In this document: piece by piece, positions 4,664-25,006 of the stretch | Layout: every line of letters begins with the position of its first letter | Position numbering within the stretch: the first letter of the stretch is position 1 | DNA from: Fibrobacteria bacterium | Lineage (GTDB): Bacteria; Fibrobacterota; Fibrobacteria; UBA11236 | DNA: 64,000 nt | Direction of reading: 5' to 3' | Assembly (NCBI GenBank): GCA_043745805.1 | Contig: JAYTSD010000004.1 | Span: 94,543-158,542, forward strand | Notes under the pieces: generated by a model | Database searches by the model: none | What the model saw: the letters and a program-made list of their open reading frames with translations, nothing else | Told to the model about the DNA's origin: nothing | Translations under genes and position numbers: made by a program

Positions 4664-5968
4664 TTAATGTATTTCATTTGATATTTCCTTCTTCGTGGAT
4701 TGCCGGATAAATATCAAAATCATTGGCAAGGTCGAAACACCTAAGGCTATCCAAGCCATTCCTGAATAGTGGATTGCCGAAAACATAAACCCGCCTGAAC
4801 CACTGGCTATGGCTGAGCCCAAGTTAACCATACTTTCATTCATGCCTAATATTTTTCCACGATTAGCGCCTTGTAATAAACTATTCAGTTCGGTAGAGGC
4901 CGAGAGGAAACAACAATTCCAACCTAGGCCCAGTAAAAACAAAGCAATGCCTAAGGACACTGACGTTTCGGCATAAGGCGCTAATAAACAAGCACTGATG
5001 AGTAATAAACTGCCTAAAGCAATAACAATGCGTTTCCCCACTTTATCGATTAACCAACCAATAGCAAAGGCCAAACCAAACATACCCGCAAAATGCGCGG
5101 AGATAACGCCTGATATAGCTGGAATGCTATGATGTTCACATTGCATATGCAAAGGAGTAATCGCCATAATCAACACCATGGCCCATTGCGCGCAAAATAA
5201 AGTGGCCATACTAAAATAAACTTTGCGATCTAATTTTCCCTGACTCAATATCGAAGTCGCTTTTGCTTCCGACTTGGGTGATGCGCCCTGTTTTCGCCAG
5301 TAACTTGCAAGTTTTCTTGGTTCCGGTCTTAATCCAAAAAATGCAAAAACAAAAACCATGAAAAACAAGCAAGCCGTACCCACCCAAGCCCCACCTGCTG
5401 CGGGACAATGCAATATCTTCGCAAAATCCATACTTACATGCGTTAAAGAAGGTCCCAATATGGAACCCACTACCGCTCCCCAAATCACAAAGCCAATTGC
5501 TCGCCCTTGTTTTTTAGGAGGATTAGATTCCGCCGCCGCATAGCGACTCATATCAATGAATCCACGTGCGATACCAAATACCGACATGCCTAATAAAAAT
5601 AAAAGCAAAGAAGAATTTACCGCACCCCAAATAGAGAGTAGTGAAGCGGTTACCCCAATGGCATAGGCAGATAGTAATACTGGTCTATAACCATAACGCT
5701 GCGATAAGCGTCCCGAAAAAAATGCCGTCAGCGAAGCAAAAATTAAACTTAAGGTTAAAGGGGCTCCCGTCCAATGCGGGTTACCTCCTCCCAACTTCAC
5801 CACCAAAAGAGAACTCGCCACAAAACTCATTGACAATGCCGAAGCAATAAATGCTTGTGCGATACAGAGCACTAAACTGATTTTTTTTCCGGCTTTTTCG
5901 ACCGCTTCAGAACTGGTTAAATCTTCCCAAGCCTTAACCTGAGAGTTAAAAAGTGAGGAAAACTTCAT
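4664..5968 (-). CDS. MFS transporter
   Basis: 12-TM hydrophobic profile. Start chosen at MKFSSLFN (ATG 5968), which makes an ATGA overlap with the upstream EamA stop. The ORF-track N-terminal extension is probably spurious. Confidence 0.7.
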   Translation of the reverse strand: MKFSSLFNSQVKAWEDLTSSEAVEKAGKKISLVLCIAQAFIASALSMSFVASSLLVVKLGGGNPHWTGAPLTLSLIFASLTAFFSGRLSQRYGYRPVLLSAYAIGVTASLLSIWGAVNSSLLLFLLGMSVFGIARGFIDMSRYAAAESNPPKKQGRAIGFVIWGAVVGSILGPSLTHVSMDFAKILHCPAAGGAWVGTACLFFMVFVFAFFGLRPEPRKLASYWRKQGASPKSEAKATSILSQGKLDRKVYFSMATLFCAQWAMVLIMAITPLHMQCEHHSIPAISGVISAHFAGMFGLAFAIGWLIDKVGKRIVIALGSLLLISACLLAPYAETSVSLGIALFLLGLGWNCCFLSASTELNSLLQGANRGKILGMNESMVNLGSAIASGSGGFMFSAIHYSGMAWIALGVSTLPMILIFIRQSTKKEISNEIH

Positions 5969-8080: not shown

Positions 8081-9355
8081 ATGAAATCATTTTTTTCTCT
8101 CTTTGTATGCCTTGCAAACTGTGTGACAAACACTATAGCTTCAGTCTTTCCTATTTTTACCTATGAAAAAATCGAGGCTCCCAGCGAAAATTATCGAGAG
8201 TCCATGCAAATTTTTGATATGGATAAAGATGGTGATTTAGACTTTACTTCCGGTGGCGGAATAGCAGGCAAAGAATTTTGGTTCGAAAATAAACAAGGCA
8301 CTTGGATTCGACATGTTTTACATAATAGCATCAATGATGCCGATGTCGGTGCCATAGTCGCTGATTTTAATGGCGATGGTTGGATGGACTTAGCAAGCGG
8401 TTCAAATGTTTATCTGCATCCAAGTATTCATCACGATCAAGAATTTATTGCCGTCAAAACCGGTGCCATGGATTTTACCCATGATATGTTTGCTGCGGAC
8501 ATTGACAAGGATGGAAAAACCGATATTGTTACCCTTGATTATAGCGGATTATATTGGTTTAAAAACGTTCTTCCCGACACCTCACAACTATGGACGAAAA
8601 CTCAAGTTGAAGGACGGCGTTTCGATCAACCTCATGGAGGCTTAGCCTTGGGTGATATAGATAATGATGGCGATATTGATATTGCGCGTGTCGACCGATG
8701 GTTTGAAAATGTAGATGGCAAAGGAGCGCAATGGAAAGAGCGCGACAGTTTAGACTTCGGACAAATAAGTAGTTGGGGGAAATCAGGAAAAACTCGTTTA
8801 GTTGATCTGGATAAGGATGGAGATCTTGACTTAATGCAATCGGATTGCGATGTACCCAATGCCCAAGTAGCTTGGTTTGAAAATTTAGATCATGGAAATA
8901 GCTGGAGTAAGCATTTAATCAAGGACAGCACCGACTTCCAAGACTTTCACACTTTGAACATTAACGATTTTAATGGGGATGGAAATCTCGATATACTCGC
9001 CTGCGGTGGACCCATAACCGACAGTGTTCCCAAATGTTATATCTGGGAAAATTTAGGACAAGCTAAAAGCTGGCAAGAACATATTATTTATACCGGCAAA
9101 ACCAATTGCCATGAAGGAATTGCCGGCGACTTCGATGGAGATGGCGATTTGGATCTGCTTTGTAAAGGCTGGCTTAATTTCCATTATATTTTAAATAATC
9201 AACTCATCCCTTCGAGTATTGCCACAAAATCCACACGCGCAAAATTAGCGCCGTCCTTAATGAAAATTATGCGAAATGGAAAAGTTATTTTTTCTTGGGA
9301 ACAACAATTCAGAGATTTGCAAGGCAAAACAATTCCCCAAAAAATCGATAAGTGA
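8081..9355 (+). CDS. Secreted FG-GAP/VCBS-repeat beta-propeller protein
   Basis: Signal peptide. Multiple DxDGDGxxD / FNGDGxxDL calcium-binding-like FG-GAP repeats. Confidence 0.6.
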   Translation: MKSFFSLFVCLANCVTNTIASVFPIFTYEKIEAPSENYRESMQIFDMDKDGDLDFTSGGGIAGKEFWFENKQGTWIRHVLHNSINDADVGAIVADFNGDGWMDLASGSNVYLHPSIHHDQEFIAVKTGAMDFTHDMFAADIDKDGKTDIVTLDYSGLYWFKNVLPDTSQLWTKTQVEGRRFDQPHGGLALGDIDNDGDIDIARVDRWFENVDGKGAQWKERDSLDFGQISSWGKSGKTRLVDLDKDGDLDLMQSDCDVPNAQVAWFENLDHGNSWSKHLIKDSTDFQDFHTLNINDFNGDGNLDILACGGPITDSVPKCYIWENLGQAKSWQEHIIYTGKTNCHEGIAGDFDGDGDLDLLCKGWLNFHYILNNQLIPSSIATKSTRAKLAPSLMKIMRNGKVIFSWEQQFRDLQGKTIPQKIDK

Positions 9356-10079: not shown

Positions 10080-10581
10080 TTTTATAACCCTTCTTTGAAA
10101 ATGTAAACGCTATAGGTTTTGTAAAACTAATAAGGTTTGCGAGATATATTATAAGAGACTAATTACACACACCTAATCAAGGTGCAGAGTTGAGCGTTTT
10201 TTCAAAAAAGAAGACCAGAGTTTTAAGAACTCATCTAGGGATATTGGCTCCCCCTTTGTCGATAAATCCCAGGCATCAACAGCTCCCGATCCCGATGGCA
10301 CTCTGATAGAAACCCCACCATCCTCAGACATAGTGACTACAGCAGGCTTACCGCCAACAGAAAAGAATCTTTTACCCTTTGAAAGCGACCTAGGATCCAA
10401 CAGTTCCGGCATATGAAATAATTTAACTCCTGCGTTAGAAAAATGCTGAATTTGGGCTCGAATTGTTTAGGTACAGTGTTTCCTAGGATATGTGGAGAAT
10501 GTGCTAAAAGAAGGTGCCTTATGCCCCTCTCTCGCACAGAATAAAAATGCATCTAAACAAAAAACCAGTAATTGTTTTGTC

Positions 10582-11009
10582 GTTTCAACTCACGCACTCA
10601 TAAAGAGCGCGACATAAGTCCACTAAAGGCGGCTTCGATGTATTCCTGTTTCAATCCATGCGCTCGTGAAGAGCGCGACTTGGCTGTTACCTGTTTTTCC
10701 ACCGTGTTGGTCGGTTTCAATCCACGCGCTCGTGAAGAGCGCGACACGAACAATAGGCGTACCAACCAGACGCCTTTTGGTTTCAATCCACGCGCTCGTG
10801 AAGAGCGCGACGATGTCTTTAACTGTCTTCAGCGCCGCTTTATTGGTTTCAATCCACGCGCTCGTGAAGAGCGCGACTACCTTTCCATTTATATCAGCCG
10901 ACAATTCAAAAGTTTCAATCCACGCGCTCGTGAAGAGCGCGACTTTATGCTTTCTGGTTTAACATCCGAGAGATCGAGTTTCAATCCACGCGCTCGTGAA
11001 GAGCGCGAC
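10582..11009 (-). CRISPR. Type I-C CRISPR array: 7 repeats of 32 bp and 6 spacers of 34 nt. Transcribed repeat GTCGCGCTCTTCACGAGCGCGTGGATTGAAAC. The leader-distal repeat (10582-10613) is degenerate.
   Basis: Exact repeats at 10714, 10780, 10846, 10912 and 10978, plus a 1-mismatch copy at 10648 and a degenerate copy at 10582. The internal hairpin GCGCTC/GAGCGC and the GTGGATTGAAAC 3' end match the I-C repeat family. Spacers are uniformly 34 nt. Confidence 0.92.
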
Positions 11010-11176
11010 TCCTTACTTCTAAGCTTAGTTAATACCTGCACTTAGAAGTGTAGATCCGCTGACCTACGTTAAATATGTAAGAGATTATTTCAAAGAACTC
11101 AAGAGTGCCCAAATGCGCTCTGATTTCGGTGCGCTAAGCCTATGTGATTTTGTGTCAGCTTTAGGTTAGCGATTGA
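11010..11176 (-). promoter_or_regulatory. CRISPR leader (between cas2 and the first repeat)
   Basis: Non-coding 167 bp between the cas2 stop and the leader-proximal repeat. The degenerate repeat lies at the opposite end of the array, as expected. Confidence 0.5.
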
Positions 11177-11467
11177 TTAAATGATCAAAGGACCATGAAG
11201 ATCTGCTGTAGGCTTTGAACCAAAATGTTCGACTCGACGTTCCCAATTACTTCCTAGATAATAAAATCGAAGACTATCTTCCTCCGCCTTATAAATCGCA
11301 AGAAGTTTACTTTTTAATAGTTCCCATTTTGCAGGTTCAACTTCGCATTCAAAAACCGAAAATTGTGCGCGTTGTCCATAATCTTCGCAACATTTCGCAA
11401 TACGACGTAACCTACGTTTACCACCTAAAGATTCGGTTTTAACGTCATAGGTTACCAGCACTAACAT
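11177..11467 (-). CDS. cas2: CRISPR-associated endoribonuclease Cas2
   Basis: 96 aa with MLVLVTYDV...FSVFECEV motifs. Confidence 0.9.
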   Translation of the reverse strand: MLVLVTYDVKTESLGGKRRLRRIAKCCEDYGQRAQFSVFECEVEPAKWELLKSKLLAIYKAEEDSLRFYYLGSNWERRVEHFGSKPTADLHGPLII

Positions 11468-11470
11468 TTA

Positions 11471-12499
11471 TTATCTCCAAATATAAGGTGGATAATAATC
11501 CATATCTCCGCGAATAGTTCGAGCTAGCAATAATGCCTGCACATGAAATAAAAGACCCATCTCCACTTTTTCATTTAAGAACGGATGAGTGATTTCTTCA
11601 CTTTTTCTTTTTTGATAAGCAATAAGAACTGCTTTTCGTGTACCGCTTTCCATTTCAACAGCACCATTTGGCGAAATAATAAAACCATTACTATCAACTT
11701 GTTTGAGGTTAACCAAGCTAAGTGCTAATCGATCTGCAAGACAAGCACGAAACTCTTCAATAATGTCTAAAGCTAAACTAGCGCGACCGGGTCTATCCGT
11801 ATGAAGAAATCCTGCCGATGGATCAAGTCCCACACCTTGTAAAGCAGATTCAATATCATTAGTAACAAGCGCATATATAAAAGACAGTAAACAATTTATT
11901 CTATCAAGAGGAGGTCTTCGGTTACGTCCTGAAAAATTAAATTCTGGTTTTTGATGAAGTATAAGGTGATTAAAAACACTAAAATATACGCTTGCGGATT
12001 CCCCTTCAATACCGCGAGCTATCTCAATATCCTGACAACTTTTAACTTTTTGCAGATAATGTCCAAGTCGAGTAATTGCGATTTGAATTTTTCCTTCATC
12101 TTCAAATTCGTGATTGCGTAAGGCACGCATTAACACGGCGCGAGAATTTCCAATCTTTGCAGCCAATAAAGCTTGAACATAGCGAATGCTCTGTTGCTTA
12201 TCATCGGCAATACGATATTGATGTTTGCGAAGCAAAATATTTCCACTTTGCGGCCCCACAACACGACCAAGAAACCTTCCTCTTTCAGTAAAGAAGGCTA
12301 ATCCAACATTATTTTCAGCACAAAATCCAATAGCGAAAGGAGAGATTAAAACATTTCCAAAACACACTACATTCCAAATACCGTGAATAGGAATTTGAAA
12401 AACTTTTTTACCATCGTGTTCAATAATTAAGGTCTCGCGTTGTTTATGCACATAACTGCCTTGGGTCGTTATGTATAAGGTATTGAGATGCTTTTTCAT
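11471..12499 (-). CDS. cas1: CRISPR-associated integrase Cas1
   Basis: 342 aa in Cas1 context, with a 4-nt overlap with cas4. Confidence 0.9.
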   Translation of the reverse strand: MKKHLNTLYITTQGSYVHKQRETLIIEHDGKKVFQIPIHGIWNVVCFGNVLISPFAIGFCAENNVGLAFFTERGRFLGRVVGPQSGNILLRKHQYRIADDKQQSIRYVQALLAAKIGNSRAVLMRALRNHEFEDEGKIQIAITRLGHYLQKVKSCQDIEIARGIEGESASVYFSVFNHLILHQKPEFNFSGRNRRPPLDRINCLLSFIYALVTNDIESALQGVGLDPSAGFLHTDRPGRASLALDIIEEFRACLADRLALSLVNLKQVDSNGFIISPNGAVEMESGTRKAVLIAYQKRKSEEITHPFLNEKVEMGLLFHVQALLLARTIRGDMDYYPPYIWR

Positions 12500-13158
12500 A
12501 AATCAAATAGGGACTGAAAATATTTTGATGAATGTGATATTGGATTCCAAGGCAGGCAAATATTTTGCAGCGAACATGCTTTACATTTTTCTCCAGGTTC
12601 AGCGGGTGGTGTTTTCCCTTCGCGAAATAAAACATGTAAGCGTTCAGCTGTTTCAAACGTTTTTTGACGCAATTCAGCATCAAGTAATACAATTTGTCTT
12701 CGCCGAGTTTGATGATAAAAAAGGTCTGCTTCTGTTAATGAAATATTAAACGCTTCTTCTAAACAAATTGCTTGAGCGCAGAGTTGTACATTGTCGTAAG
12801 GACCAGTTTTAACCTTTCCACGTTTATATTCTACAGGCCTTGGGAGCCAAAGACCCGTTAGTCCAAACTTTTCCAAACCGATTCCATGGATAGTATCTTT
12901 TGTGGTTCGACGAAATTCAACCACATCCGCTTTACCACTTACTTTTAGCTGCTGACTTTTGATAGGAAGAGATCGCGTAACATACAAGTCACTGCGTTTT
13001 TCATCCTTACCACTATCAACTTTTTCGTGCAAAATTTGACCTTGTATTGTGAACGTATTTTCCTCCCATGCGCGCTCCAAATGGATCAATGCGCATTGAC
13101 GCTCGCAGAACAAAATGTGCTGGAGCGCCGAAATGGGGAGGAAATCTTCTTCGTTCAT
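12496..13158 (-). CDS. cas4: CRISPR-associated exonuclease Cas4 (RecB-like nuclease with a C-terminal Cys cluster)
   Basis: 220 aa with a CERQCALIHLE N-terminal Cys and a C-terminal CKACSLQNIC Fe-S motif. Confidence 0.85.
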   Translation of the reverse strand: MNEEDFLPISALQHILFCERQCALIHLERAWEENTFTIQGQILHEKVDSGKDEKRSDLYVTRSLPIKSQQLKVSGKADVVEFRRTTKDTIHGIGLEKFGLTGLWLPRPVEYKRGKVKTGPYDNVQLCAQAICLEEAFNISLTEADLFYHQTRRRQIVLLDAELRQKTFETAERLHVLFREGKTPPAEPGEKCKACSLQNICLPWNPISHSSKYFQSLFDL

Positions 13159-13191: not shown

Positions 13192-14133
13192 TCACGCCAT
13201 ACGAATTAATTTTACACCATTTCCCAAGTCTCTATTTGATCCTACATCTGGAAGTGGTTTACCATCAAATAGAACGTCATAATCATTAAATGATCTAGCT
13301 GGGCCAGTACTTCCTTCTCTGCGCTTGACTTCAGCACGTTCAAATAAAGTATGAGCGGGAGAATTACCAAGGGCAGAACTGTGTTCAAATACAAGGAGTG
13401 GTCGTGTGGACATAAGGCCTCTTGCAGCCGATCGATCATGCTCAAACATATTTTTTAGTGCTTCCCAAAAAACTGTAAGATCATCTTCAGTAAATTCTGT
13501 TTGTGCTGCGAGATGCGCCGAGATGAATCCATGTGAGCGATAAAGCCCATACGGAATTGTAAATTTACGACCCATAGTACGATTATCTCCACCTTGCTTT
13601 TCAGCATCAGCTTCAGTAGTTACCGCCATACGAGTGATGCTATGCTCTAACACTACAACTGGCTCGATTGAACGAGCAAAAGTCATTTGAATAGGTCCAC
13701 GAACTTGTCCAGCATTTGCACCTGTACTCATAACAGCACCGAATGTTCGAATATCAAAATATGTTTTGCACATACGTGATCGGCCCTTGCTTATTTCGCT
13801 TCCTTGAGCATCACCTTTACTATTACGTTTCTTCCCGTCTTTAATATCCTGAGGTTCTTTCTCAAGGTCTATTCCAAGATCAGCGTAGGCACCAGCTATT
13901 TTTTGATTTAATATAGCCTTCTCTTTTACGAAAATATCATACGTTGGTTTACCTTCATTTGTAAGTGAAACAAAATTCCGCACCTTGCGCTTGAGGCAAA
14001 CATCTGTTACTAGCCCCATTCCTGTTTCTGCATCTATACGAGGAAGATTACCGGCATCTGGATCGCCATTTGGATTTCCATCTTGCACATCGAATAATAA
14101 AATGAAATCGTAACGTTTGTTAATAGTGCTCAT
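13192..14133 (-). CDS. cas7: Cas7 (Csd2) type I-C backbone subunit
   Basis: [28 protein letters not shown] signature of Csd2. Confidence 0.9.
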
Positions 14134-14139
14134 GTTTAA

Positions 14140-15870
14140 TTATCCTTCTTTTGTTGGTTGTTCTGGTTTTTCAGATTTTGTGAAAAATGCTTGACGTTGA
14201 TGATAATAACCAATCGCAAAACGCGCTTGATCTTCCATAGATAGATGACTTGGCATATCTGGAAGCATTCCTCCAAAAATTTCCCCAAGGCGTTTTTCAT
14301 GTGCGCCTCGAAATGCATGATTTTCCAATTTCGCTAAATGATGATTCTTTAGTTTTAGTAGTTGCGGAAAAACACTTACTGGACTAGAACTTGCTGCTCC
14401 ATAAAAGCGGTCACGAATAGTAGCATTAATTCCTGGTTGAGCATCTTCTTGAATTTTTTCGAGCGCAGCAAAAAGTCTTCCTAGCCTATACCCGGGGTTA
14501 GTATTAGTGGAATCAAGTGCCATAGTTATCTCCTGCTGTATTGAATTGAGTTGTATGTTTCGTTTTCGATTAAGGCAACCTTTCAAAAGAGATGCCTGTG
14601 TACGTTTCACTTCACGGTTGGCCCTGATTCGGCGAACAACTTGTTGTAAAAGTGTTGTAGGAAATGGTCCACCTGTTAGGATAGAGCGCATGACGTTTCC
14701 CGCCAGATTTGGAGGAATGTTTTCAATTTTATTTTGAAGCGCTATATCAGAAAGCAAGAAGAAGAGAGCGTAACTTCCTTTGTCTCCATTGGGCTTCACA
14801 ATTTCTAAGTCTTTAAAATATTTTTGAAGATTTTCAGAGAAATCAGCTACTGTACCAGTATGCCAAAACCGTACAGATACTCTAGCCGCATTGGGCGAAA
14901 GTCCTAAAACAAAAAAACGTGCGTCTTCATTTGGAAGACTAGATCCTGTATAGGGACTTTTCAAAAGCGTTTCAACTGCTTTTATATCTCTATCGGGATC
15001 ATCTTTACTCACACTCCAGTAAGAAAAAAAATCTTCCTCTAGCGATGTTTTTTTGTCGGACCAAAATACTGTAGTAGCATCGCCAACCTGAACTTTGTTT
15101 TTCGAATCGCGACTGAGTAGCATATTTAGAGCTGTCGTATAGGCAAAAGTTGCAAAGTTACTGATCGGAGCGTTCTTATTTTGTTCTTTTCCATAGGAAC
15201 GGAAAGCCGATAAATTAAAGGAACTTATTGCTCCTCCTGCTGGTTGCGCATCTCGAACACCTTTGATCGCTGGATGGAGTTGCGATATAGGCGATTTCTT
15301 TCCCAATATTAGGCAAATGCCTTCGCTCGATGAATTAATCGAAACGATACTAGAAGCGAGGGTTTCGCAAATTGAAGTTGATTCTGATCCGTCAATTCTA
15401 AATACAACATTAGAATTGGCATTAACCTCGCACATCTCTTTCCAGATGTTAGCATCTTTGGAACTGGCTTCGATTTGTAAGATAGGATTAGAATCGAGAA
15501 ATCGAATAAGGGCATCGCGATCAGGATGATCAATAAGATTGGTAATCAAACGATTTCGAAAAGCTAAATGTCGAGATGCAGCATCATCTCTTCCGCGGGG
15601 GTTGGCTCCAAGCGCATATTCAATATTATCCCATAAGAGATTAGCTTTTATACCTGATGCTCTTTTTTCTCCGGCTGGAACTAAGAAAGAACGAGTTCGC
15701 CTTTTTTTTCCTTCCCCTTCTCTAGTATCTTCTAATGCTATAAATTTTCCGTCACGATTTATTACTACTACAAATGAGATATCTTTCCATTCAAAACCTT
15801 CGGGTGCGATTCCGCTTTCTGGATCTAATGCCTTTCTTTGATAATAATCATAAAGAGCTTGCAGAATCAT
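14140..15870 (-). CDS. cas8c: Cas8c (Csd1) type I-C large subunit
   Basis: MILQALYDYYQR N-terminus typical of Csd1. 576 aa. Confidence 0.9.
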   Translation of the reverse strand: MILQALYDYYQRKALDPESGIAPEGFEWKDISFVVVINRDGKFIALEDTREGEGKKRRTRSFLVPAGEKRASGIKANLLWDNIEYALGANPRGRDDAASRHLAFRNRLITNLIDHPDRDALIRFLDSNPILQIEASSKDANIWKEMCEVNANSNVVFRIDGSESTSICETLASSIVSINSSSEGICLILGKKSPISQLHPAIKGVRDAQPAGGAISSFNLSAFRSYGKEQNKNAPISNFATFAYTTALNMLLSRDSKNKVQVGDATTVFWSDKKTSLEEDFFSYWSVSKDDPDRDIKAVETLLKSPYTGSSLPNEDARFFVLGLSPNAARVSVRFWHTGTVADFSENLQKYFKDLEIVKPNGDKGSYALFFLLSDIALQNKIENIPPNLAGNVMRSILTGGPFPTTLLQQVVRRIRANREVKRTQASLLKGCLNRKRNIQLNSIQQEITMALDSTNTNPGYRLGRLFAALEKIQEDAQPGINATIRDRFYGAASSSPVSVFPQLLKLKNHHLAKLENHAFRGAHEKRLGEIFGGMLPDMPSHLSMEDQARFAIGYYHQRQAFFTKSEKPEQPTKEG

Positions 15871-16592
15871 TTGCGCACCTCATCGCTGTCCCACGACGGT
15901 AGATTGATTATTCCATTTTTTATGGTTGGTCGAAAAAAAGTAGGTTTGGGATCGGTTGCATCTGAAAAATCCATATCATATAACATGAATCCTAAGTCGC
16001 GTGATTCTGCTATTGGTGGATTCTTAGCTTGCTCTTCAGCTAGATTAGCTTCGCTTAATAAACGGAAAGCACAACTAAATTCACGACAACCTAAATAAGG
16101 TTGATTAAAACATTGTCCTTTAGTGGCTCTGCGCTCAAACATTGCATTGTATTTACCTGGATTCTCATCTTTAGCCCAATCAATACGCTCTTCAACCTCC
16201 ACCAATTCTTCTGAAACTGGGTTCATTATTTTAGGACGCTTCGGTGGTGGTATAAATTCCATTTCAGCATAGAGACGGTAAGCGATATCTCGAAGAAAAA
16301 GCCCTGCACGTTGTTGCCGTTCATCTTCAATTAGAATACCATCACTTCCTGAAGAAGCTATTTTACCGATTTCGTTACGACGCACAGATATCCATCGAAT
16401 TGGATTTAATACTTCAATTTTATTAATTCTCCATACTATTGCGGGCTTCCAAAATATAGCTTCGAAAATAGCACGCGCTGCCGATGGAGTAATAACATCA
16501 TAACTGACGCGCTCTACTTTCATTTCTGGGCGCGTGAAGCAAGCATAGTCGCCTCGAACTTCTAAACAAAATGATCTATTTTTGTAAATCAA
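15867..16592 (-). CDS. cas5: Cas5d (type I-C Cas5 with pre-crRNA processing role)
   Basis: LEVRGDYACFTRPEMKVERVSYDVITPSAARAIFEAIFWKP signature. ATGA overlap with cas8c. Confidence 0.9.
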   Translation of the reverse strand: MIYKNRSFCLEVRGDYACFTRPEMKVERVSYDVITPSAARAIFEAIFWKPAIVWRINKIEVLNPIRWISVRRNEIGKIASSGSDGILIEDERQQRAGLFLRDIAYRLYAEMEFIPPPKRPKIMNPVSEELVEVEERIDWAKDENPGKYNAMFERRATKGQCFNQPYLGCREFSCAFRLLSEANLAEEQAKNPPIAESRDLGFMLYDMDFSDATDPKPTFFRPTIKNGIINLPSWDSDEVRK

Positions 16593-16613
16593 AACAAGGA
16601 CCGTCCTTTCTTT

Positions 16614-18899
16614 TCAATAAATAAATTCCGTACCATCATACACTGGCCCATCAATGCGTAAGCCAAAAGTGTAGTCGTACAAGCCGGAAACACATTGTGC
16701 CCATAATCCAAGAGCACCTTCTGGGCCTATCACTTCCATGATGACCCCTTGATCTCGAAGTTTTTGCCAAACAATTTGAGGCACATTAACTGTGAATCGC
16801 TGAAGACGCCGCATCCGCTCCCGAGTCGGACCATATTTTGTGACTTCTTCTATAATTTCCTGACTAGTAAATTTACTAGTCGCATGCCACACCACAATTC
16901 CACGATACCCTTGCTCATCTATAAGCTGATACCACAAGGCAGCAGACCGAAATTGAAACTGACATCGTCCTGCATCCACTATCAAATGCTGTTTGAATAT
17001 ATCTTTACCAAAATCGTTAACACGTCCATAAAAAAAATGGAAATAGCGTTGAAAAGCTTCCGGTGCTAAACGATGAGCCAGTTCTGGTGCAGTGCGCATC
17101 ACTTCTGCGCCAGCATCTTCCCCTTTACGCAAAAGACCTTGCGGGGATGGCTTTGGTGGATGAAAGATTACTACGTCACCCAGTTTCCCATCCAAATTTA
17201 ATCGACCTTCTCGATTGCATCGTCCAGCAGCTTGAGCGATACTATCAAGTCCGGCCATTGCCCGATAGACAACAGGAAAGTCAATATCCACTCCCGCTTC
17301 GACAAGTTGGGTACTTATGACTCGTAAAGGATTTCCTTTTTGCAAATCGTCTTTAATCTGAGCCACCACCTGTGAGCGATGAACTCCACACATAAGTGCG
17401 GATAAATGCACTGGTGTTTCTCCAGTATGTTTCTGGACAGCTTCCCAAAGGTCACGGCAATCTTGCCGTCGATTAACAATGCACAATACTTGTGAGTGCT
17501 TCGCAAGGGATTGTGACAAAGTCGCCCAATCCACTCGTTCATCACTGTATACACGAAGGGCTACTCGCCTAAGAGTGTGCGCCAAATTAATAGGATCGCG
17601 AATGATTTCACGTACATTATTTATACCATTAAATTTAACTTTGCCGGATCCAATATCCCCAATCAAAGCAGGCTGAGTAGCTGTACACAATACAACCGTG
17701 CATCCAAAATGAGCCACGAGACCTTTTAAGACCGAAAGAGTAGGAGCTAGTTTTTCCGGAGGTAACATCTGCGCTTCGTCAAGGATAATGACTGAATTTG
17801 CAAGATTATGAAGCTTTCTACATCGACTAGTTCGTGCTGCAAATAATGACTCAAATAATTGCACATTAGTAGTAACTACAATAGGTACATCCCAATTCTC
17901 AGATGAAAGTCGTCCTTTTGGTGTCTCTCGATCTAAATCGAGATTACTATGATGCTCCAGAACATTTACTGATCCAAAAATCTTTATGAGCTCTTGTGCG
18001 GTCTGCTCAATTATACTTGTAAATGGAATTGCTACTACTATACGACGCTTATTATGCTTCAGAGAATGTTCTAATGCAAAGGCCACAGAAGAAAGAGTTT
18101 TCCCACCACCTGTTGGCACTGTTAGAGAAAAGAATCCTGATTCCAGCTTTCCTGCCCCTATACAATCTTCTAATACTTGTCTGCGAATTTTGTTTACAGG
18201 AAGATCAAAGAGTTTTTTTTCTTGAAGTTCAATATTCCTTTCTGCATTCCTAATATTAAAAACATCTAAAAGCGCCTTTAGGTTAGTGGTAGAACCACGC
18301 AAAGCCGATTTTTTCGGATCCATAAAGGCTTCTGTGTCTAAAAAATCGGCATCAACTAATGAGGAAAAAAGCATTCTAATCCATAAATGTGCATGCTCAG
18401 GATCAGGAGGTGGCCTGGATTTGGGCATTGCTGCATTTAAAATTTCTTCGGGTATCGGAGCTTTTTTTGTTTCTTCTAAATGCTGTTTATCATTTAATCT
18501 CTCTTCAAGCCCTCGACCTTCTGCCTCCGCTTTTAACCAATCAGGGAGACCCGCATGATGCCCTGCAATTAAATACGCCAAGATTTTCCCTACTCCCCCG
18601 TGACGTGATACAGCATGAATGGCACCCGCTGTACTATGATCAACCTTGCCTGGTGTATTTTCCAAATGAGCGTCTGGATTATAGCCGCTAGCAGAACGAA
18701 TATAGGTTTGAAAATCAGATTTATACTTTCCTAAGTCATGCCAAATTCCAGCTAAGAACGCCCATTCAGCAGAATCAAATGTTGATGCAAAGTTTTCTGC
18801 TAATGTTGCTACTGCTTGAAGATGTTCTTCCAAAGAATGCTGGATCCAATTCCCATTCTCATCTTTCCGAACATGAGCTAAATAATTTGACATACCCAA
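16614..18899 (-). CDS. cas3: Cas3 HD-nuclease/helicase
   Basis: N-terminal HD motifs (HSLEEHL, WHDLGKY), Walker A VPTGGGKT and a DEAQ box. 761 aa. Confidence 0.9.
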   Translation of the reverse strand: MGMSNYLAHVRKDENGNWIQHSLEEHLQAVATLAENFASTFDSAEWAFLAGIWHDLGKYKSDFQTYIRSASGYNPDAHLENTPGKVDHSTAGAIHAVSRHGGVGKILAYLIAGHHAGLPDWLKAEAEGRGLEERLNDKQHLEETKKAPIPEEILNAAMPKSRPPPDPEHAHLWIRMLFSSLVDADFLDTEAFMDPKKSALRGSTTNLKALLDVFNIRNAERNIELQEKKLFDLPVNKIRRQVLEDCIGAGKLESGFFSLTVPTGGGKTLSSVAFALEHSLKHNKRRIVVAIPFTSIIEQTAQELIKIFGSVNVLEHHSNLDLDRETPKGRLSSENWDVPIVVTTNVQLFESLFAARTSRCRKLHNLANSVIILDEAQMLPPEKLAPTLSVLKGLVAHFGCTVVLCTATQPALIGDIGSGKVKFNGINNVREIIRDPINLAHTLRRVALRVYSDERVDWATLSQSLAKHSQVLCIVNRRQDCRDLWEAVQKHTGETPVHLSALMCGVHRSQVVAQIKDDLQKGNPLRVISTQLVEAGVDIDFPVVYRAMAGLDSIAQAAGRCNREGRLNLDGKLGDVVIFHPPKPSPQGLLRKGEDAGAEVMRTAPELAHRLAPEAFQRYFHFFYGRVNDFGKDIFKQHLIVDAGRCQFQFRSAALWYQLIDEQGYRGIVVWHATSKFTSQEIIEEVTKYGPTRERMRRLQRFTVNVPQIVWQKLRDQGVIMEVIGPEGALGLWAQCVSGLYDYTFGLRIDGPVYDGTEFIY

Positions 18900-18944
18900 A
18901 ACCTAACTCCCCACACTCTCAAAACCTGATAGTGAAACAAAAAA

Positions 18945-19913
18945 TCAAACATATTTTTTCGCCGCCGCCTTCAACGTTCCCAACACTTTCGCTCGCAAAA
19001 AAAGCGGATCTACTACTTCCACCTCATCCCCATACCGCAGAATATCCATTAACAATTCCCTTTCATCCCCAAAAGGAAGTTTCAAACGATAACTTCCATC
19101 AGCCAACCACTCTCCAATTTGCTTTGGATGCCATTGCTCTTGCGATACAAATCTCGCTGCTGTTTTATGAAAAATTAATTCTGCTATATGCTTGGCCTTA
19201 CCTGCAAAAATTCCGTACGACTCGGTAAAGTGATCCTGCAAAATATTTTTATCCTCAGAGCGAGCTTTGCTTTTTAAAACTTCTACTCCAGTAATTCGAT
19301 TTAAAGCAAATGATCGAAGACCCTGCCGAAAATGACACCATGCGTCCAAATACCAATTGTCGCGATAACGAACTAAACTTTGTGGACATACCGTGCGCAG
19401 GGTAGCGGTTCCATCGCTACCTCTTATATAATTCAACTTTAATTGCTTACGAAGGAGTACACCTTCGGCGATAGATTTAAAAATACCCTCGCCAATCTTT
19501 CTTGTGCCCATAGGCAAAAGACGTATGCGATTTTCCCAATTGGAAAGTGGAATTTCATTTTCATTTAATAGCTTGGTAAGTTTTTCACGCAAAGGAGCAA
19601 ATTGTTCTTGCAGTATATCGGCGTGCATTTCGCGTAAAATATTTTCTAAGGAAATTAAGGCGGCTAATTCCTCGCCACTAAACCATAAACCAGGTAACTC
19701 ATAAGTTTCCGCATCTGCAAGATCATAACGATACCCCTTATATTTCCTATCGCACAGAATGGGCGCGGCCAGCTTGTCGCGCATGAATTTAACTACACGA
19801 TAAAAAGTAGCCGAAGAGCAATGCAATTCTTTTTGTATTCGCATTGCGGGCGTAGCATATCGATGTTGCATTAAATAGCGATGCAAAGCATAAACCATTT
19901 CAAATCGTACCAT
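18945..19913 (-). CDS. WYL-domain transcriptional regulator (N-terminal HTH, central WYL domain), 45 bp upstream of cas3
   Basis: HTH-like N-terminus (SSATFYRVVKFMRDKL). A literal DNWYLDAW motif within a WYL-like domain. Same strand as the cas operon. Confidence 0.7.
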   Translation of the reverse strand: MVRFEMVYALHRYLMQHRYATPAMRIQKELHCSSATFYRVVKFMRDKLAAPILCDRKYKGYRYDLADAETYELPGLWFSGEELAALISLENILREMHADILQEQFAPLREKLTKLLNENEIPLSNWENRIRLLPMGTRKIGEGIFKSIAEGVLLRKQLKLNYIRGSDGTATLRTVCPQSLVRYRDNWYLDAWCHFRQGLRSFALNRITGVEVLKSKARSEDKNILQDHFTESYGIFAGKAKHIAELIFHKTAARFVSQEQWHPKQIGEWLADGSYRLKLPFGDERELLMDILRYGDEVEVVDPLFLRAKVLGTLKAAAKKYV

Positions 19914-19966
19914 GAACCGGCCCTCATCTAAGGAATATGAATGCTAGTAACTAATTGAAATATCAA

Positions 19967-20029
19967 CTTCATACATTTTGATTACAAATGAATTATTTGC
20001 TTGCGTGTTACTCGGCACTTCGACAGGCT
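19967..20029. repeat. 63-bp direct repeat, copy A (1 mismatch to copy B), upstream of the WYL-cas operon
   Basis: CTTCATACATTTTGATTACAAAT[G/A]AATTATTTGCTTGCGTGTTACTCGGCACTTCGACAGGCT is present at 19967-20029 and 24598-24660. Confidence 0.85.
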
Positions 20030-20039
20030 TGCATGTCCC

Positions 20040-20918
20040 TTATTCGGCTTCTTCGTAGTAGTAGGAATAGTCAATTCCCTTCATGAACATTTCCCGGTCA
20101 TGAATTTTATCGGTTAATGACTTGGTGATCAATTTTTTCAGCATGGAGTTATCCGTCACACTGAGTCTCACGGCTTCCAGATATTTATTTTTATTGATCT
20201 TGCTCCAGTCAACACAGCGGGCATGTTTTTTCTTTAGCATCAAATCCAGCCAGATCCTTGCCGTTCTGCCATTGCCTTCCATGAAAGGGTGGGCAATATT
20301 CATTTCGGTATATTTGTTGATGACATTTTCAATCGAATCTTCCAGCATTTTTTCTATTGCAACTAGCGTAGTTGGCAGAAACCCGGCTGCGGCAAATTGA
20401 AAACCACCTTTGCTGATATTTTTTGTGCGAATTAAACCTGCAAAATCATACAAGCCGCCAAAAAGATAGGCGTGTATTTGCTGCAAACCCTTAACTGTAC
20501 CCACTTCAATACTGTCGATAAAAGAACTTTCAAAAAGAGCATAGGCTTTTGATTTGCTCTTGCCGTCGATCGTTTCTTCGCTGTATAAAAACCACTCAAT
20601 AAAGCGATTTGACTTAGTGTTGGGAAGGTTTTTTGCGAGCGTTATTACACCATCGGAATCAATCACATCGGAAAGCCGTTTTTTTCCATCAGGTGCCAAC
20701 AATTTCAACTGGTTAGTGCCACTACCCAGTTGAAGGTTTTCTTTTTTCAGCTTTGCTTTTAAATATTTCCAGTAATTACGGTTTTTTTCGTAATTTTCCT
20801 GGTCATTTAATACACCCACAATGTCCAGTACGGAAAACCACCAACGAGACCCTGTATCGTTCCACACCGCGCGGACTTCTCGGTCATTAAAAAACCGGAT
20901 GGAAATTTTCTCTTTCAT
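20040..20918 (-). CDS. Fic/Doc-family protein (AMPylation/phosphocholination-type toxin fold) with a Bro-N/DinD-like N-terminal domain
   Basis: Perfect Fic motif HPFMEGNGRTAR. N-terminus RFFNDREVRAVWNDTGSRWWFSVLDIVGVL resembles the Bro-N fold. Confidence 0.8.
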   Translation of the reverse strand: MKEKISIRFFNDREVRAVWNDTGSRWWFSVLDIVGVLNDQENYEKNRNYWKYLKAKLKKENLQLGSGTNQLKLLAPDGKKRLSDVIDSDGVITLAKNLPNTKSNRFIEWFLYSEETIDGKSKSKAYALFESSFIDSIEVGTVKGLQQIHAYLFGGLYDFAGLIRTKNISKGGFQFAAAGFLPTTLVAIEKMLEDSIENVINKYTEMNIAHPFMEGNGRTARIWLDLMLKKKHARCVDWSKINKNKYLEAVRLSVTDNSMLKKLITKSLTDKIHDREMFMKGIDYSYYYEEAE

Positions 20919-21745
20919 GATTTGCCACCCGTTTCGAGCAATTTTCGTTCTGCTATCCGCTCGCGCACCTCAATGAGTGCGTTGTGCAGTTTTTGTTCAA
21001 GCAATTCTTTAGGTGGAAGATTTGTCCAATATTCGGCAACCATTATGTTGTCTTTTTGCATATTGAGCAGTTCCACAAATGCAAAGGAATTTCCCAATTC
21101 CAGGATGAAAAGCTCCAATTCTTTTAGAATTGCATTTTCTAATTCATTTTCAAGGTAGCCTTCTTTCAGACCCAGAAAATCGAGAAAATAAGGATCTTTA
21201 AAATTTCCAGTAAGGTGATTCGCATTCGCTAAGGTTAGTTTTGTATCCGCAATTTCGGTTCGTTCAAATGCTTTACGTTCTATTTGATCCTTTAAAACCC
21301 GCTTGCTCCAGTGTAATTCACTCGCCATGCGGGCATAAAAAAAACGAGCTTCAGGAGGTTTTAAAGGAATTAGCAATAAAAAATGCGACTAGGTTAATTG
21401 TCGTGCCAGTGGAACGACAATCTCGAAATCAGAAAAAACCTCCGCAAACTGCATCATTCGACGAAGATTTTTCGCCTCAAAGCTTTTGCCATAAAGCAAG
21501 ATTAGCTCCTGCGCCAGAGACTCCACAACCTGTTTGCCGTATTCGGCCCGCTCACCCTGTAAAATAGATTCGTTGATCCGTTTACCCACATGCCAATAGG
21601 TTGTTGTAAGAGCATTGTTGACCGCTACAATCGCCTGACGACGACCTTGATCAATAAGCACCTTTAAATCGTGCACCAAATCACCATTGACTATTACAAA
21701 GTTTTGCGCGCTTATTGCAGAGTCAGCTTTTATTTCGTCATTCAT
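20915..21745 (-). pseudogene. DUF1016/YhcG-like (PDDEXK nuclease-family) gene interrupted by one in-frame TAG (21389-21391) at a conserved Trp position
   Basis: ORFs 21389-21745 and 20915-21376 are in the same frame. The junction reads ARQLT*SHFLLL where family members have LTWSH. Otherwise full length. Confidence 0.7.
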
Positions 21746-21758
21746 AATTTAATCCTAA

Positions 21759-22357
21759 TTATCCATTAGTTTCCGGCTTAGGAAAGGTGAGCAGCATTTC
21801 ACGGTAGTAGTTGTATTGCTTTTTGCGGGCTATAAGCTCGGTGAAGGTGTCCAAAATGCGGACGATTTCGGATTGGATTTCGAGGGATTTTTTCGGGTTG
21901 TCGGGGCATGGAACAGGGACTCGGTACTTGTCAGTATCTGGAGTTGCAATCTGTGGCATTTGCATTTTGCTGCCGAGATTCTGAAAGTACGGTTCATTCA
22001 GTTTAAGAAAATGATATAAATACTTGATATGGATAAACTCATTTTGTGAATGATATGACCACATTTCATTCTTGTGCGAAAATGGTTTATCGTAATATTC
22101 AAACTCAATATTACCACGAGATTTAACGACGATAGAAGGCTCTCTATTTATATCCTTCTCTGGAATATCGTTAAAATCGAAAAAGGAAATTGTTTTGCCA
22201 CCTGCAAAAATTTTTAATGGGGCATCATCTTTGTGTAAGACCTTCATTTCACTAGCGGTAATTTTTGTGCCTTTAGTACGCACAAGCACCCCCCCAAGGC
22301 CTTCCACTCTACCGCCACACCTTCAAGCAGTGCTTTCATTGGATTCTGATTACTCAT
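21759..22357 (-). pseudogene. hsdS: Type I R-M specificity subunit HsdS, single-TRD form, frameshifted at a poly-C7 tract (22288-22294)
   Basis: Conserved HsdS start MSNQNPMKALLEGVAVEWKALG is in one frame. The downstream TRD ORF (MEGLGGVLVRTKG...) is in another frame across a C7 run. Confidence 0.6.
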
Positions 22358-23210
22358 GCTTGCCTCTATGCATTTTTTTAACCCCTAGGTCATCGGTAAG
22401 CAAACGCATTTGGTGTATGGCTGTACGGTTCAATAGCTTTATTCTTTCTGATTGTGGCAATCCCTGCTGTATTAAATGAGCATTCAGGTTTTCAAGGTTG
22501 GCAAGACACACCAGATGTGAGACATTTGCATAATCTCGAATGTTACCATTTTTACCATGGTTCTCATCACGCCATTGCTTTGCGGTTTTCCCGAACAGTG
22601 CCATATTCAGCAGATCAGCCTCTGAAGCATACACAAGATTCATTTGCTGATTGGTTAATTCCGCCGGGATCAGGTTTTCTTTGATGGCATCGGTGTGAAT
22701 TCGGTAATTGATTTTAGTGAGTTGGCGTTTGAAATCCCAACCAAGTTTTTTCTGCTCCTCTTCTTTGAGTCGCTGGAACTCTTTAATGAGATAAAATTTC
22801 AGTTCCGGAGAAATCCAGGTAGCAAATTCAAAAGCGATATCCTTATGAGCATAGGTACCGCCATAGCGTCCAGCCTTGGAAATAAGTCCTATCGCATTTG
22901 TTTTTTCAATCCATTGTTTTGCAGAGAGAACATAGCCATTACTGCCACTTTCATTTTTAATGTAACTGAATTCCGTTAGATTAAAATTCGGGTTGCTCAC
23001 GCGTTCCCAAATCCCCATAAATTCAATAGTGTAGCGGGTACTAAGCCAATGAGAAATAACAACACCGGTATGCTCAGCGTTCTTATGTTTGGCCAAATCC
23101 GTCAGCGAGATATAATCTTCAGCCCCCTGATTAAAAAAGGTCACATCACTGCCGATTATTTCAATTTTTTTGTTTTTATCCATTATAGAAGCTTCCTTAA
23201 CGGCTTCCAC
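22350..23210 (-). CDS. KilA-N domain protein (inserted within the hsdS region)
   Basis: About 280 aa, with an architecture typical of KilA-N proteins found in type I R-M loci. The likely true start is MDKNKK at 23183. The C-terminus ...GKHE* runs into the conserved hsdS 5' segment. Confidence 0.55.
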   Translation of the reverse strand: MEAVKEASIMDKNKKIEIIGSDVTFFNQGAEDYISLTDLAKHKNAEHTGVVISHWLSTRYTIEFMGIWERVSNPNFNLTEFSYIKNESGSNGYVLSAKQWIEKTNAIGLISKAGRYGGTYAHKDIAFEFATWISPELKFYLIKEFQRLKEEEQKKLGWDFKRQLTKINYRIHTDAIKENLIPAELTNQQMNLVYASEADLLNMALFGKTAKQWRDENHGKNGNIRDYANVSHLVCLANLENLNAHLIQQGLPQSERIKLLNRTAIHQMRLLTDDLGVKKMHRGKHE

Positions 23211-23260
23211 TCCACCGTCGCCCCATCAAGCAGTCTCTCCATTAAATTCTGATTACTCAT
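23183..23260 (-). pseudogene. Second, truncated copy of the hsdS conserved 5' segment ([25 protein letters not shown])
   Basis: About 67-bp similarity between 22300-22366 and 23204-23270, with the last 25 bp identical. Confidence 0.45.
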
Positions 23261-24002
23261 GCTTGCCTCCTAAATTCCCCTCTTGAGGGGTGGCAGGCTG
23301 CAAGACTGACGGGGTGGATGCATTAAGCATGTAAAAGACAGAAGAATCCACCCCGCCCTTCGGGCACCGCTCAAGAGGGGAATTTTTTTGGGAACTAAGT
23401 TCAGCAGAATTCTTAAGCGTACTCGCTACGGCGTTTATTTCATCTTCACGTATTTTAATAGCTGCAACAACTTTTTCTTTTACAGAAGAGATAAACTTCT
23501 TAACTTCCAAATCAGTGAAATGAATAACTTCTAATTGCAGGCCGCGCAAAATTGCTTCGCGTTGTGCGTCGTACTCCTGTTTAAAATCGTGACTACTCCC
23601 ATCTATTTCAAAGACCAGTCCCAATTCGGGAATAAAAAAATCGACGATGAAATTTCCAATAATGACTTGCCTGTCTATATCATAGCCCAAGGATTTTTTG
23701 TATTTGAACGCTTGCCAGAATAGTACTTCTGCCAGATTTCCAGCTTTTCGAAGCTCTCTGGATCTTTGAGTGAGTTTTTTATTTTTTGGGAGCGCTAAGT
23801 AGTTGAATATCCGCCTCTCAGGAGGGGAATTAAGAAAATGCGACTCTATGTATTTATTCCCCTCCATTGGAGGGGTGGCCGACAGGGCGGGGTGGTAGAA
23901 ATTGGTTTTAAATGTTTGGGTTATCGACCCAAGAATCTTTGGATATACCGTATAGAACTTCTGGATGGTTTCGACGAGGTGGTTAAAATTTAGGATGTTC
24001 AT
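23253..24002 (-). CDS. DUF559 (Vsr-like endonuclease fold) protein with probably non-native N- and C-terminal extensions
   Basis: Core [23 protein letters not shown]...EIDGSSHD...VIHFTDLEV matches DUF559. The ORF tail overlaps a GC-rich hairpin cluster. Confidence 0.55.
23277..23393. repeat. Nested GC-rich inverted repeats (TCCCCTCTTGAGGGGTG ... CACCGCTCAAGAGGGGA, with inner GGGGTGGAT...ATCCACCCC). A related motif CCCCTCCATTGGAGGGGTGGC occurs at 23865-23885.
   Basis: Read directly. These are GC-rich palindromic motifs on both sides of the DUF559 core in otherwise AT-rich DNA. Confidence 0.5.
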
Positions 24003-24408
24003 CCTTCACTGCCATTTTCAATCTCAGCAACAATGGCATCAATATCCGCGCGGAGTTTGTCAATTTTCTTCACTGTGATTTGTATCTCTGAATTAAGTTT
24101 TGTGATATTTATCAATTCGCGTGTGTCTTCGGCAACCACATAGGAGCTCACAGATAGATTGTATTCATTGGCTTCAATGGCATCAAAGTCAACCGATTTC
24201 GCCATATACTCAATATCGACTTTACGATCGAAGGCATCCATGATCTGAGCAATATGATCATCGGTGAGGGTGTTGTTATTTGTCTCTTTTTGAAGAGCGT
24301 GCCGAGTACATATTGCTTAAAATCCCATCCATCGATGGAGCCACGCACGTCGTTTGCAATTTTCCAAATTTGGGATTGTAATTCGGCTCGTTGTGCGGCA
24401 CTTGTCAT
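23999..24408 (-). pseudogene. hsdM: Type I R-M methyltransferase HsdM remnant: about 35-aa N-terminus, frameshift, then about 60-aa C-terminus, with >1 kb deleted internally
   Basis: [39 protein letters not shown] (HsdM N-terminus) and [10 protein letters not shown]...EIENG (HsdM C-terminus) lie in different frames only about 400 bp apart. Confidence 0.65.
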
Positions 24409-24597
24409 TTGTAAAACTCCAGTTTATATAAGAAAATAAATATAGCCTCGTTCCAAGTTGGTTTTCAGGTTTTTCTTTCCGGCGCGTGGATTTATTCTTT
24501 TTGTTAGGAGCGGTTTTTGAAATAAATTTTTTAATGTGGAGCATTGCATGCAACTATCGCTTGCATGAATCGTTTATCATTCATTCACAAAAAAAAT

Positions 24598-24660
24598 CTT
24601 CATACATTTTGATTACAAATAAATTATTTGCTTGCGTGTTACTCGGCACTTCGACAGGCT
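24598..24660. repeat. 63-bp direct repeat, copy B
   Basis: See copy A. Confidence 0.85.
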
Positions 24661-24722
24661 CAGTGACCGAGCAACACGTTCGGGCATAGTGTATACTTCG
24701 GTCACTGAGCCTGTCGAAGTGA
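24647..24722. repeat. Perfect 24-bp-arm inverted repeat (CACTTCGACAGGCTCAGTGACCGA / TCGGTCACTGAGCCTGTCGAAGTG) with a 28-nt spacer. The left arm overlaps direct-repeat copy B. A third partial arm lies at 24847-24880.
   Basis: Read directly. No ORF covers it. Confidence 0.7.
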
Positions 24723-25006
24723 CCAAGATGCAACCGAAATGTTTACGTTCGCAAATTTTCGAATATGTAAGGGCGCTGTGAACGAACCCCACATGCATAT
24801 CGAAAGGGTAGACGAGGATCACGCGAGTTAACACGGTATTTCGTATCTCGGTCACTGAGCCTTTGTCGAAGTGAACGAAACGTGAGTGTTAAATCGTGAA
24901 GCCGAGGCTAGGGGAAGACTTTCCCCTTTATCAAGTAGCCATACATAACCAAGAAGAAAATTTCCCTGCTAGCCAAAACTTCGCTTTTATAGCATAATAT
25001 CAACTT

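Follow-up and report, generated by a model that had tools for sequence, protein, structure and literature searches.

The link between CRISPR-Cas expression and infection is still poorly understood, and the only experimentally studied WYL-domain regulator of a type I system that we found is Sll7009. A stretch of 64,000 nucleotides (nt) from a Fibrobacteria bacterium (contig JAYTSD010000004.1, positions 94,543 to 158,542; hereafter the window, to which all coordinates without a locus name refer) raises the question of how such a regulator may be tied to the cas genes beside it. Here a gene for a WYL-domain protein of 322 amino acids (aa) stands directly upstream of cas3 in a type I-C locus, a compact case in which a regulator of the class that senses single-stranded DNA (ssDNA), a 21-bp candidate operator and the first cas gene lie within about 1.1 kb. 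The answer that we tentatively favour, at a little less than even confidence, is that the protein, judged from its sequence, is a transcription factor dedicated to the I-C operon and a ligand-dependent activator of a cas3-cas2 promoter in the gap between the two genes. A WYL gene beside a type I cas operon is a known, already catalogued arrangement, and this gene is of an ordinary cas-associated type; what is new here is its placement on an activator-like branch of the WYL proteins and a conserved sequence between it and cas3 that is a candidate control site.

The regulator gene (18945..19913, minus strand), delimited by open reading frame (ORF) and translation, Pfam, PADLOC and an AlphaFold model, encodes a YafY-family protein with winged helix-turn-helix (wHTH), WYL and WCX domains. 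Its ATG start has a GAGGG Shine-Dalgarno sequence 7 nt upstream, and its TGA stop occupies 18945-18947. The WYL domain, an Sm-like beta-barrel (residues 144-212; 19278..19484, minus strand), matches PF13280 over profile positions 2-70 of 70 (E 1.2e-18, 67 bits vs a 21.8-bit cut-off), and a WCX domain follows (residues 244-318; 18960..19184, minus strand; PF25583, 3.5e-13, 50 bits vs a 23.9-bit cut-off). The original prediction, which had been made from the letters and translations, described a 322-aa protein with an HTH-like N-terminus, a WYL domain and a literal DNWYLDAW motif; Pfam and the model bear this description out, with the motif at residues 185-192. The profile search that it proposed recovers WYL clearly, whereas HTH_11 (PF08279, residues 10-62; 3.2e-4, 21 bits) stays under its 25-bit cut-off. 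We nevertheless regard the N-terminal wHTH (residues 1-65; 19719..19913, minus strand) as credible, because the predicted fold contains it, Foldseek alignments to DriD run full length with the wHTH included, and PF08279 is matched in most homologues of the regulator. In the AlphaFold2 model, built from 39 sequences (mean predicted local distance difference test, pLDDT, 77), this part forms helices 3-15, 23-30 and 34-47 and a beta-hairpin wing (strands 52-55 and 60-63) at pLDDT 80-91; the linker helices are of low confidence in the monomer. Its residues C32, S33, T36 and R39 are invariant or nearly so across homologues.

The family is very large: the 90% clustered database yields more than 4100 matches, and among representatives of the 50% clustered library 7130 match the regulator at E<=1e-3, 2127 at E<=1e-10 and 423 at E<=1e-30. 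At 50% clustering the protein itself remains a singleton; the nearest relative shares 50% identity with it, and the exact sequence was found on one NCBI contig and one Logan contig. Homologues are named YafY family, WYL domain-containing or 'proteasome accessory factor C' in the sources, and no NCBIfam model covers the protein.

By sequence and by modelled fold the regulator is closest to the ssDNA-activated activators DriD and PafBC. Among solved structures the sequence ranking is led by PafBC (5.9e-13), followed by DriD and PafC (about 1e-8), and CapW/BrxR structures match in the WYL region only (3.6e-4 for 7tb5, 0.012 for 7qfz, 0.09 for 7t8k and 9c5g). Foldseek places DriD first (E 2e-16), then PafBC, then CapW/BrxR at 12-14% identity, and the C-terminal half aligns with the DriD C-domain at a TM score of 0.73-0.76 and a root-mean-square deviation of 3.2-3.7 Å. 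The three-domain architecture is that of DriD, PafBC and DdaA, and the DNWYLDAWC context of PafC-like proteins is present, although identity to DriD and PafBC is only 21-26% and those proteins serve a DNA-damage regulon, whereas the gene here adjoins a CRISPR-Cas operon. DriD, PafBC and CapW bind ssDNA in the WYL domain (PMC9186387, PMC11804915, PMC11662680). An HMMER alignment to DriD, combined with the contact list of PMC9186387, indicates that eight of the 11 ssDNA-contact positions are conserved or conservatively replaced (from DriD to the regulator: Y168 to Y162, S172 to S166, R178 to R173, Y192 to Y188, R204 to R200, W206 to F202, Y240 to F236 and R288 to R285). On these retained contacts the earlier suggestion of a DNA-damage or infection signal is plausible.

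The WYL gene lies upstream of cas3 in the same orientation. The separation of 45 bp given originally holds for a cas3 start at TTG 18899 and becomes 51 nt for ATG 18893, the start favoured by the gene call on an identical public contig and by the N-termini of relatives (MSNYLAHV vs MAEQYLAH). This gap had been taken as a mere spacer, but it carries a conserved imperfect palindrome, CACTATCA-GGTTT-TGAGAGTG (18914..18934, minus strand), which we consider a candidate operator; of 1000 shuffled versions of the 45-nt gap, 2 contained an inverted repeat as good. Its perfect form, CTATCA-N5-TGATAG, occurs only three times in the 1.86 Mb of fetched loci, each time directly upstream of cas3 (loci L087, L089 and L090), and L171 also carries it before cas3. 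In L064, from Burkholderiales, CACTATCA-TGAAA-TGCGAGTG lies between cas3 and a WYL gene whose product is 43-44% identical to the regulator. This site shares the internal asymmetry of the window palindrome, and because the mismatch is uncompensated and common to both, a DNA site is weakly favoured over an RNA hairpin. Among the proteobacterial cas-linked loci searched, L064 alone has such a palindrome. Two related sites, TCTCA-N5-TGAGA, occur in the 173-nt intergenic region of L088, in which WYL gene and cas3 diverge. The relaxed pattern TNTCA-N5-TGANA was found 8 times in 1.2 Mb; three of these sites follow a WYL stop by no more than 400 bp, against an expectation of 0.22, and none is on the upstream side. 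All these patterns were derived after the sites had been seen, and their statistics are indicative only. A search for perfect palindromes common to the upstream or downstream regions of more than 80 homologues yielded no family-wide operator. The regulator is presumably a homodimer, for which the palindrome would be the specific double-stranded target. The fragment 19914-20040, proposed earlier for binding assays, is probably not the best target, and 18900-18944 is the better candidate; the interval 18900-19966 singled out at the start does consist of gap, gene and part of the upstream region.

Next to the palindrome, alignment of the gap in related loci reveals a conserved block, GGAG-T-TAGGTT (18900..18913, minus strand); GAG-YTAKGTTTTG is conserved in four related loci and present in L171 too. 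The block may be read in either of two ways. It could be a GGAG Shine-Dalgarno sequence followed after 7 nt by a TTG start, a start that is not universal, since the TTG of L089 runs straight into an in-frame TGA. Alternatively, TAGGTT (18900-18905) could be a -10-like hexamer of the form TAnnnT, in a promoter that has a very short leader and lacks a -35 element; 8 nt separate the hexamer from the palindrome and 6-9 nt from the ATG that follows (6 nt from ATG 18893). cas3 may thus have its own regulated promoter and operator in the gap. The original prediction relied on there being no terminator/promoter pair before cas3. A scan of 16400-22500 for sigma-70 promoters and intrinsic terminators indeed found none in either gap flanking the WYL gene, yet palindrome and TAnnnT suggest a possible cas3 promoter. 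RNA folding gave z +1.69 for the WYL-cas3 gap and z -0.42 for the Fic-WYL gap, with no terminator and no stable structure, and Rfam had no match to the whole window at the gathering threshold or, with E relaxed to 1, to 18800-20100. The layout itself has precedents. PafBC reads a -26 motif that stands in for the -35 element (PMC11804915), and DriD-dependent promoters have no recognisable -35 element (PMC13004042); in both cases the site lies just upstream of the -10 element, and a similar arrangement is possible in the cas3 gap. Activation by DriD and PafBC is known, whereas for the regulator here only the promoter-like layout is seen.

That the regulator would serve the cas genes is suggested by its relatives. 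It matches the PADLOC 'WYL, CAS-associated' profiles PDLC01457 (3.5e-35 over residues 7-305) and PDLC01652 (4e-30), and so shares the profile of the CRISPR-associated WYL ancillary class (Makarova 2014, PADLOC), as a separate gene here and in fused form elsewhere. WYL genes at CRISPR loci and WYL-Cas3 fusions have been described before (Makarova 2014; PMC4012209), and WYL genes near cas1 of I-F systems have been reported (PMC12887000). In our survey of the best 80 homologue loci in genomes (41-47% identity to the regulator), cas genes lie downstream in 13, co-oriented in every one, and belong to subtypes I-C, I-C-like, I-B-like and I-G (Cas_GSU0053 and Cas3). Three of the four closest metagenome proteins looked up precede cas operons in the same orientation, one of type I-F (cas1, cas2-3, csy1-3) and two of type I-E; the fourth accompanies an MNT/HepT toxin-antitoxin pair. 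Taken over genomes and metagenomes, the cas-linked homologues are 41-48% identical to the regulator. A 'WYL domain-containing protein' is likewise encoded 3 bp before cas6-cas3 on a plasmid of Synechococcus elongatus UTEX 3055. The earlier view of WYL proteins as ligand-sensing regulators of defence loci agrees with these relatives, which precede cas operons of several type I subtypes. About 67 of the 80 genome homologues, chiefly from Xanthomonadales and including a large clade of that order, are set among housekeeping genes. A neighbour-joining tree spreads the cas-linked members over its non-Xanthomonadales branches, and by this pattern the regulator acts like a module repeatedly joined to different type I systems. 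The I-F- and I-E-linked relatives share an inverted repeat of their own, TGTGTC-N7-GACACA, right after the WYL stop (L084 about 1425-1450, L085 about 8625-8650, L086 about 8980-9000).

Relatives of the Cas3 protein are far closer (67-72% identity) than those of the WYL protein, and five of the seven closest cas3 loci have an adjacent WYL gene. It is co-oriented and directly upstream of cas3 in L087, L089, L171 and L172 and divergent in L088; L090 and L173 have none in the upstream DNA available (3.3 kb in L090). The WYL proteins of L087, L088, L089 and L171 are only 36-41% identical to the regulator of the window and that of L172 only 18%, values below those of the proteobacterial cas-linked members (43-50%). 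We interpret this low identity beside a close Cas3 as an indication that the regulator either evolved much faster than Cas3 or was replaced. Since the WYL gene is divergent in L088 and in the Synechocystis plasmid pSYSA, co-transcription with cas3 is not a requirement of the family. The public gene call for the WYL protein of L087 (283 aa) omits the HTH, and the frame continues upstream through 5003-5124 (ISDDRLSDLAALLKSGHRRLTRKYLETRWNCSTPTVHRIV); the protein is full length, probably translated from a TTG start.

The activator reading is favoured because DriD and PafBC are the closest relatives and because a palindrome, 8 nt, a TAnnnT hexamer and no -35 element stand just before cas3. From these we infer ssDNA as the ligand, binding of the regulator at the palindrome and the positive sign of regulation. 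The WYL/WCX half would bind short ssDNA arising from phage replication, DNA damage or the action of Cas3; binding would shift the geometry of the two wHTH domains, and the regulator would then act at the conserved palindrome 18914-18934, between its own stop and cas3. The outcome would be to switch on a cas3-cas2 promoter in the gap, whose transcript would have a very short leader or be leaderless, and read-through of the regulator's own transcript may supply basal expression. A more specific version, in which a DriD/PafBC-like activator works at a promoter without -35 element in the 45-nt gap, ssDNA from Cas3 or an invading replicon feeds forward on the interference and adaptation genes, and the module is exchangeable between type I subtypes and at times fused to Cas3, is in our view unlikely as a whole. 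We found no literature report of a CRISPR system under a DriD/PafBC-like activator at a promoter lacking the -35 element. If the activator reading is true, DNA-damage-type sensing would be tied directly to CRISPR immunity.

Several observations weigh against this reading. The palindrome tracks the cas3 lineage, not the WYL lineage, and L090 has it without any WYL gene in the 3.3 kb available upstream. GGAG-N7-TTG is equally readable as a ribosome-binding site and start codon, which would place the palindrome in a transcribed leader and fit a repressor, a roadblock or an RNA hairpin. The sigma-70 consensus used in the promoter scan may not apply to the host, probably an uncultured member of Fibrobacterota; for a housekeeping protein encoded in the window, glycogen phosphorylase, the nearest named relatives (72-79% identity) come from metagenome-assembled genomes of Fibrobacteres/Fibrobacteria. 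Three of the 11 DriD contacts differ (R176 to T171, K202 to G198, R207 to A203). The DriD/DdaA box CGAC-N7-GTCG, to be compared with the candidate site CTATCA-N5-TGAKAG, is absent from both flanking gaps by eye, no dedicated pattern search having been made for it. Finally, many equally similar homologues, for example across Xanthomonadales, stand away from cas genes, and the adjacency is not family-wide.

The alternative that survives best, although we think it rather doubtful, is a ligand-released repressor following the logic of CapW, BrxR and Sll7009, which would sit on the palindrome, a short way ahead of the cas3 ribosome-binding site, and block either initiation or elongation from the WYL promoter until ssDNA de-represses cas. 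Every WYL regulator of a defence system that has been characterised to date (BrxR, CapW, Sll7009) is a repressor, and CapW/BrxR, the repressors of CBASS, BREX and other defence systems, have the same domain order and also head a defence operon; CapW has ssDNA as its ligand, and BrxR homologues adjoin CRISPR-Cas in 10% of associated systems (PMC9122601). The palindrome of about 20 bp fits the operator size reported for BrxR, and its position 7-8 nt from GGAG, with GGAG-N7-TTG reading well as Shine-Dalgarno sequence and start, would leave the site transcribed. One of the TCTCA-N5-TGAGA sites in L088 moreover lies 12 nt from the WYL start, as autorepression would predict. In the window, by contrast, the WYL gene has no copy of the palindrome upstream of it. 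The RWHVR motif, a mark of CapW/BrxR repressors (PMC11662680), is absent from the regulator, which has RDNWYLD in its place; identity to CapW/BrxR is 12-14% with weak E-values, and the nearest relatives by sequence and fold are activators. Sll7009, the repressor of the type I-D CRISPR1 system of Synechocystis pSYSA, is encoded by a WYL gene that directly adjoins cas3, as here, but that gene is divergent from cas3 and the subtype is I-D, whereas the gene of the window is co-oriented in a I-C locus, and BLASTP detects no similarity between the two proteins (E 2.2). Under the activator and the repressor models alike, cas expression would rise with ssDNA. If repression is true, CapW/BrxR logic extends to a DriD-looking protein.

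It is improbable, in our view, that the WYL module mainly partners the Cas3 protein, as an ssDNA sensor or loader for the helicase-nuclease, and that the gene pair is a split fusion. Such a partnership is suggested by the more distant metagenome cas3 loci (32-47% identity): where upstream sequence sufficed (about 52 loci), seven loci carry a WYL module, and in six of these it is part of a continuous in-frame HTH-WYL-WCX-Cas3 ORF of about 1080-1110 aa, with the HTH kept, in type I-C loci (among them L128 2978-6238, L131 503-3787, L147 462-3791 and L153 2960-6208). One PADLOC Cas3c profile includes a WYL/WCX region ahead of Cas3, the fusions noted by Makarova 2014 are of the same kind, and the accessory protein WYL1 boosts Cas13d directly, according to a statement cited in PMC9122601. 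WYL1 is itself only a distant fold match (6oaw, E 4e-6, 11% identity), with no sequence match to the regulator at E up to 1. Neither the 120 closest Cas3 proteins nor the 150 best WYL representatives include a WYL-Cas3 fusion, and the modules found in fusions share only 24-33% identity with the WYL proteins of the query panel. The wHTH of the regulator is retained and well conserved, its clade also precedes cas1 (I-F) or a Cas_GSU0053-family gene (I-G) or adjoins toxin-antitoxin pairs without Cas3, and the divergent arrangement in L088 and pSYSA speaks against a split fusion as well. Equally little credit can be given to a general chromosomal YafY-family regulator, such as one of a DdaA- or DriD-like DNA-damage regulon, that lies beside cas by chance: the many Xanthomonadales homologues among housekeeping genes, apparently inherited vertically, and DdaA of Acinetobacter, a gammaproteobacterial WYL activator of DNA-damage genes, would suit it, but the adjacency to cas recurs over five type I subtypes and several phyla, the CAS-associated PADLOC match is strong (3.5e-35), the gap to cas3 is only 45-51 nt and fusions with Cas3 exist.

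The operon downstream of the regulator is co-oriented with it, as originally described, and is a complete type I-C locus (cas3-cas5c-cas8c-cas7c-cas4-cas1-cas2, without cas6, plus an array), all on the minus strand. It comprises cas3 with HD nuclease and helicase (16614..18899; PADLOC Cas3c 1.3e-210; Pfam Cas3_HD, DEAD and Cas3-like_C_2), cas5c (15867-16592), cas8c (14140-15870) and cas7c (13192-14133), which match NCBIfam Cas5c, Csd1 and Csd2 above cut-off, cas4 (12496-13158) and cas1 (11471-12499), assigned by Pfam Cas4 and Cas1, and cas2 (11177-11467), assigned by translation. From cas3 through cas2 the genes are tightly packed, with spacings of 21, -4, 6, 33, -4 and 3 nt, and the GC content is uniform across the locus (0.38-0.43). 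The CRISPR array (about 10582..11009, minus strand) has seven repeats of 32 nt at a 66-nt period with 34-nt spacers; read on the minus strand the repeat ends in ATTGAAAC, and the repeat most distant from cas2 is degenerate. A 157-aa ORF on the plus strand (10572-11045) was rejected as a gene, its recurrent FNPRAREERD being the array read as protein.

The closest I-C loci differ from the window in a Bro-N gene between cas7 and cas4 (L087 11706-12539, L088 12736-13569, L089 11698-12531, L090 9037-9876), of which there is none at this place in the window. The Bro-N/Fic fusion gene upstream of the WYL gene is 22% identical over the Bro-N part (E 2e-6). In L088 a toxin-antitoxin-like UPF0175/DUF3368 pair (8279-9014) lies on the opposite strand between cas3 and cas5.

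The 126-nt region upstream of the WYL gene (19914..20039, minus strand) contains no recognised sigma-70 promoter or terminator. Fic/Bro-N and the other genes farther upstream are co-oriented, and with no terminator found in between, their transcription could run into the WYL gene; sequence therefore does not establish the claim that the WYL gene is the first of the cas transcription unit. Two motifs in this neighbourhood were considered and rejected: ATTCATTT-N7-AAATGTAT (19971-19993) is a weak inverted repeat at chance level (404 of 1000 shuffles as good), and GACA-N8-TGTC beside the Fic stop belongs to a repeat resembling repetitive extragenic palindromes (REP). The duplicated segment that had been reported here as 63 bp is real and measures 72 nt, with copies at 19958..20029 and 24589-24660 that are 93% identical and share a 64-nt core with one mismatch.

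These copies bracket a 4.6-kb block (20030-24588) of co-oriented genes of the defence-island type: Bro-N/Fic (PADLOC PDC-S04), a YhcG/DUF1016 gene split in two ORFs, an HsdS fragment, KilA-N and a DUF559 endonuclease. The block, which contains no integrase, has the appearance of an inserted segment, or of a decayed type I restriction-modification island, placed ahead of the WYL gene. Copy 2 of the repeat abuts a perfect 24-nt inverted repeat (CACTTCGACAGGCTCAGTGACCGA; 24647-24670 and 24698-24721), of which a third, partial arm lies 150 nt away at about 24847-24862; the element is similar to REP or to miniature inverted-repeat transposable elements, and the 72-nt repeat has a fragment of this element as its distal end. 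A further repeat of 71 nt (22296-22366 and 23199-23269, 82% identical) is located at the junctions before the KilA-N and DUF559 genes and suggests a cassette-like arrangement.

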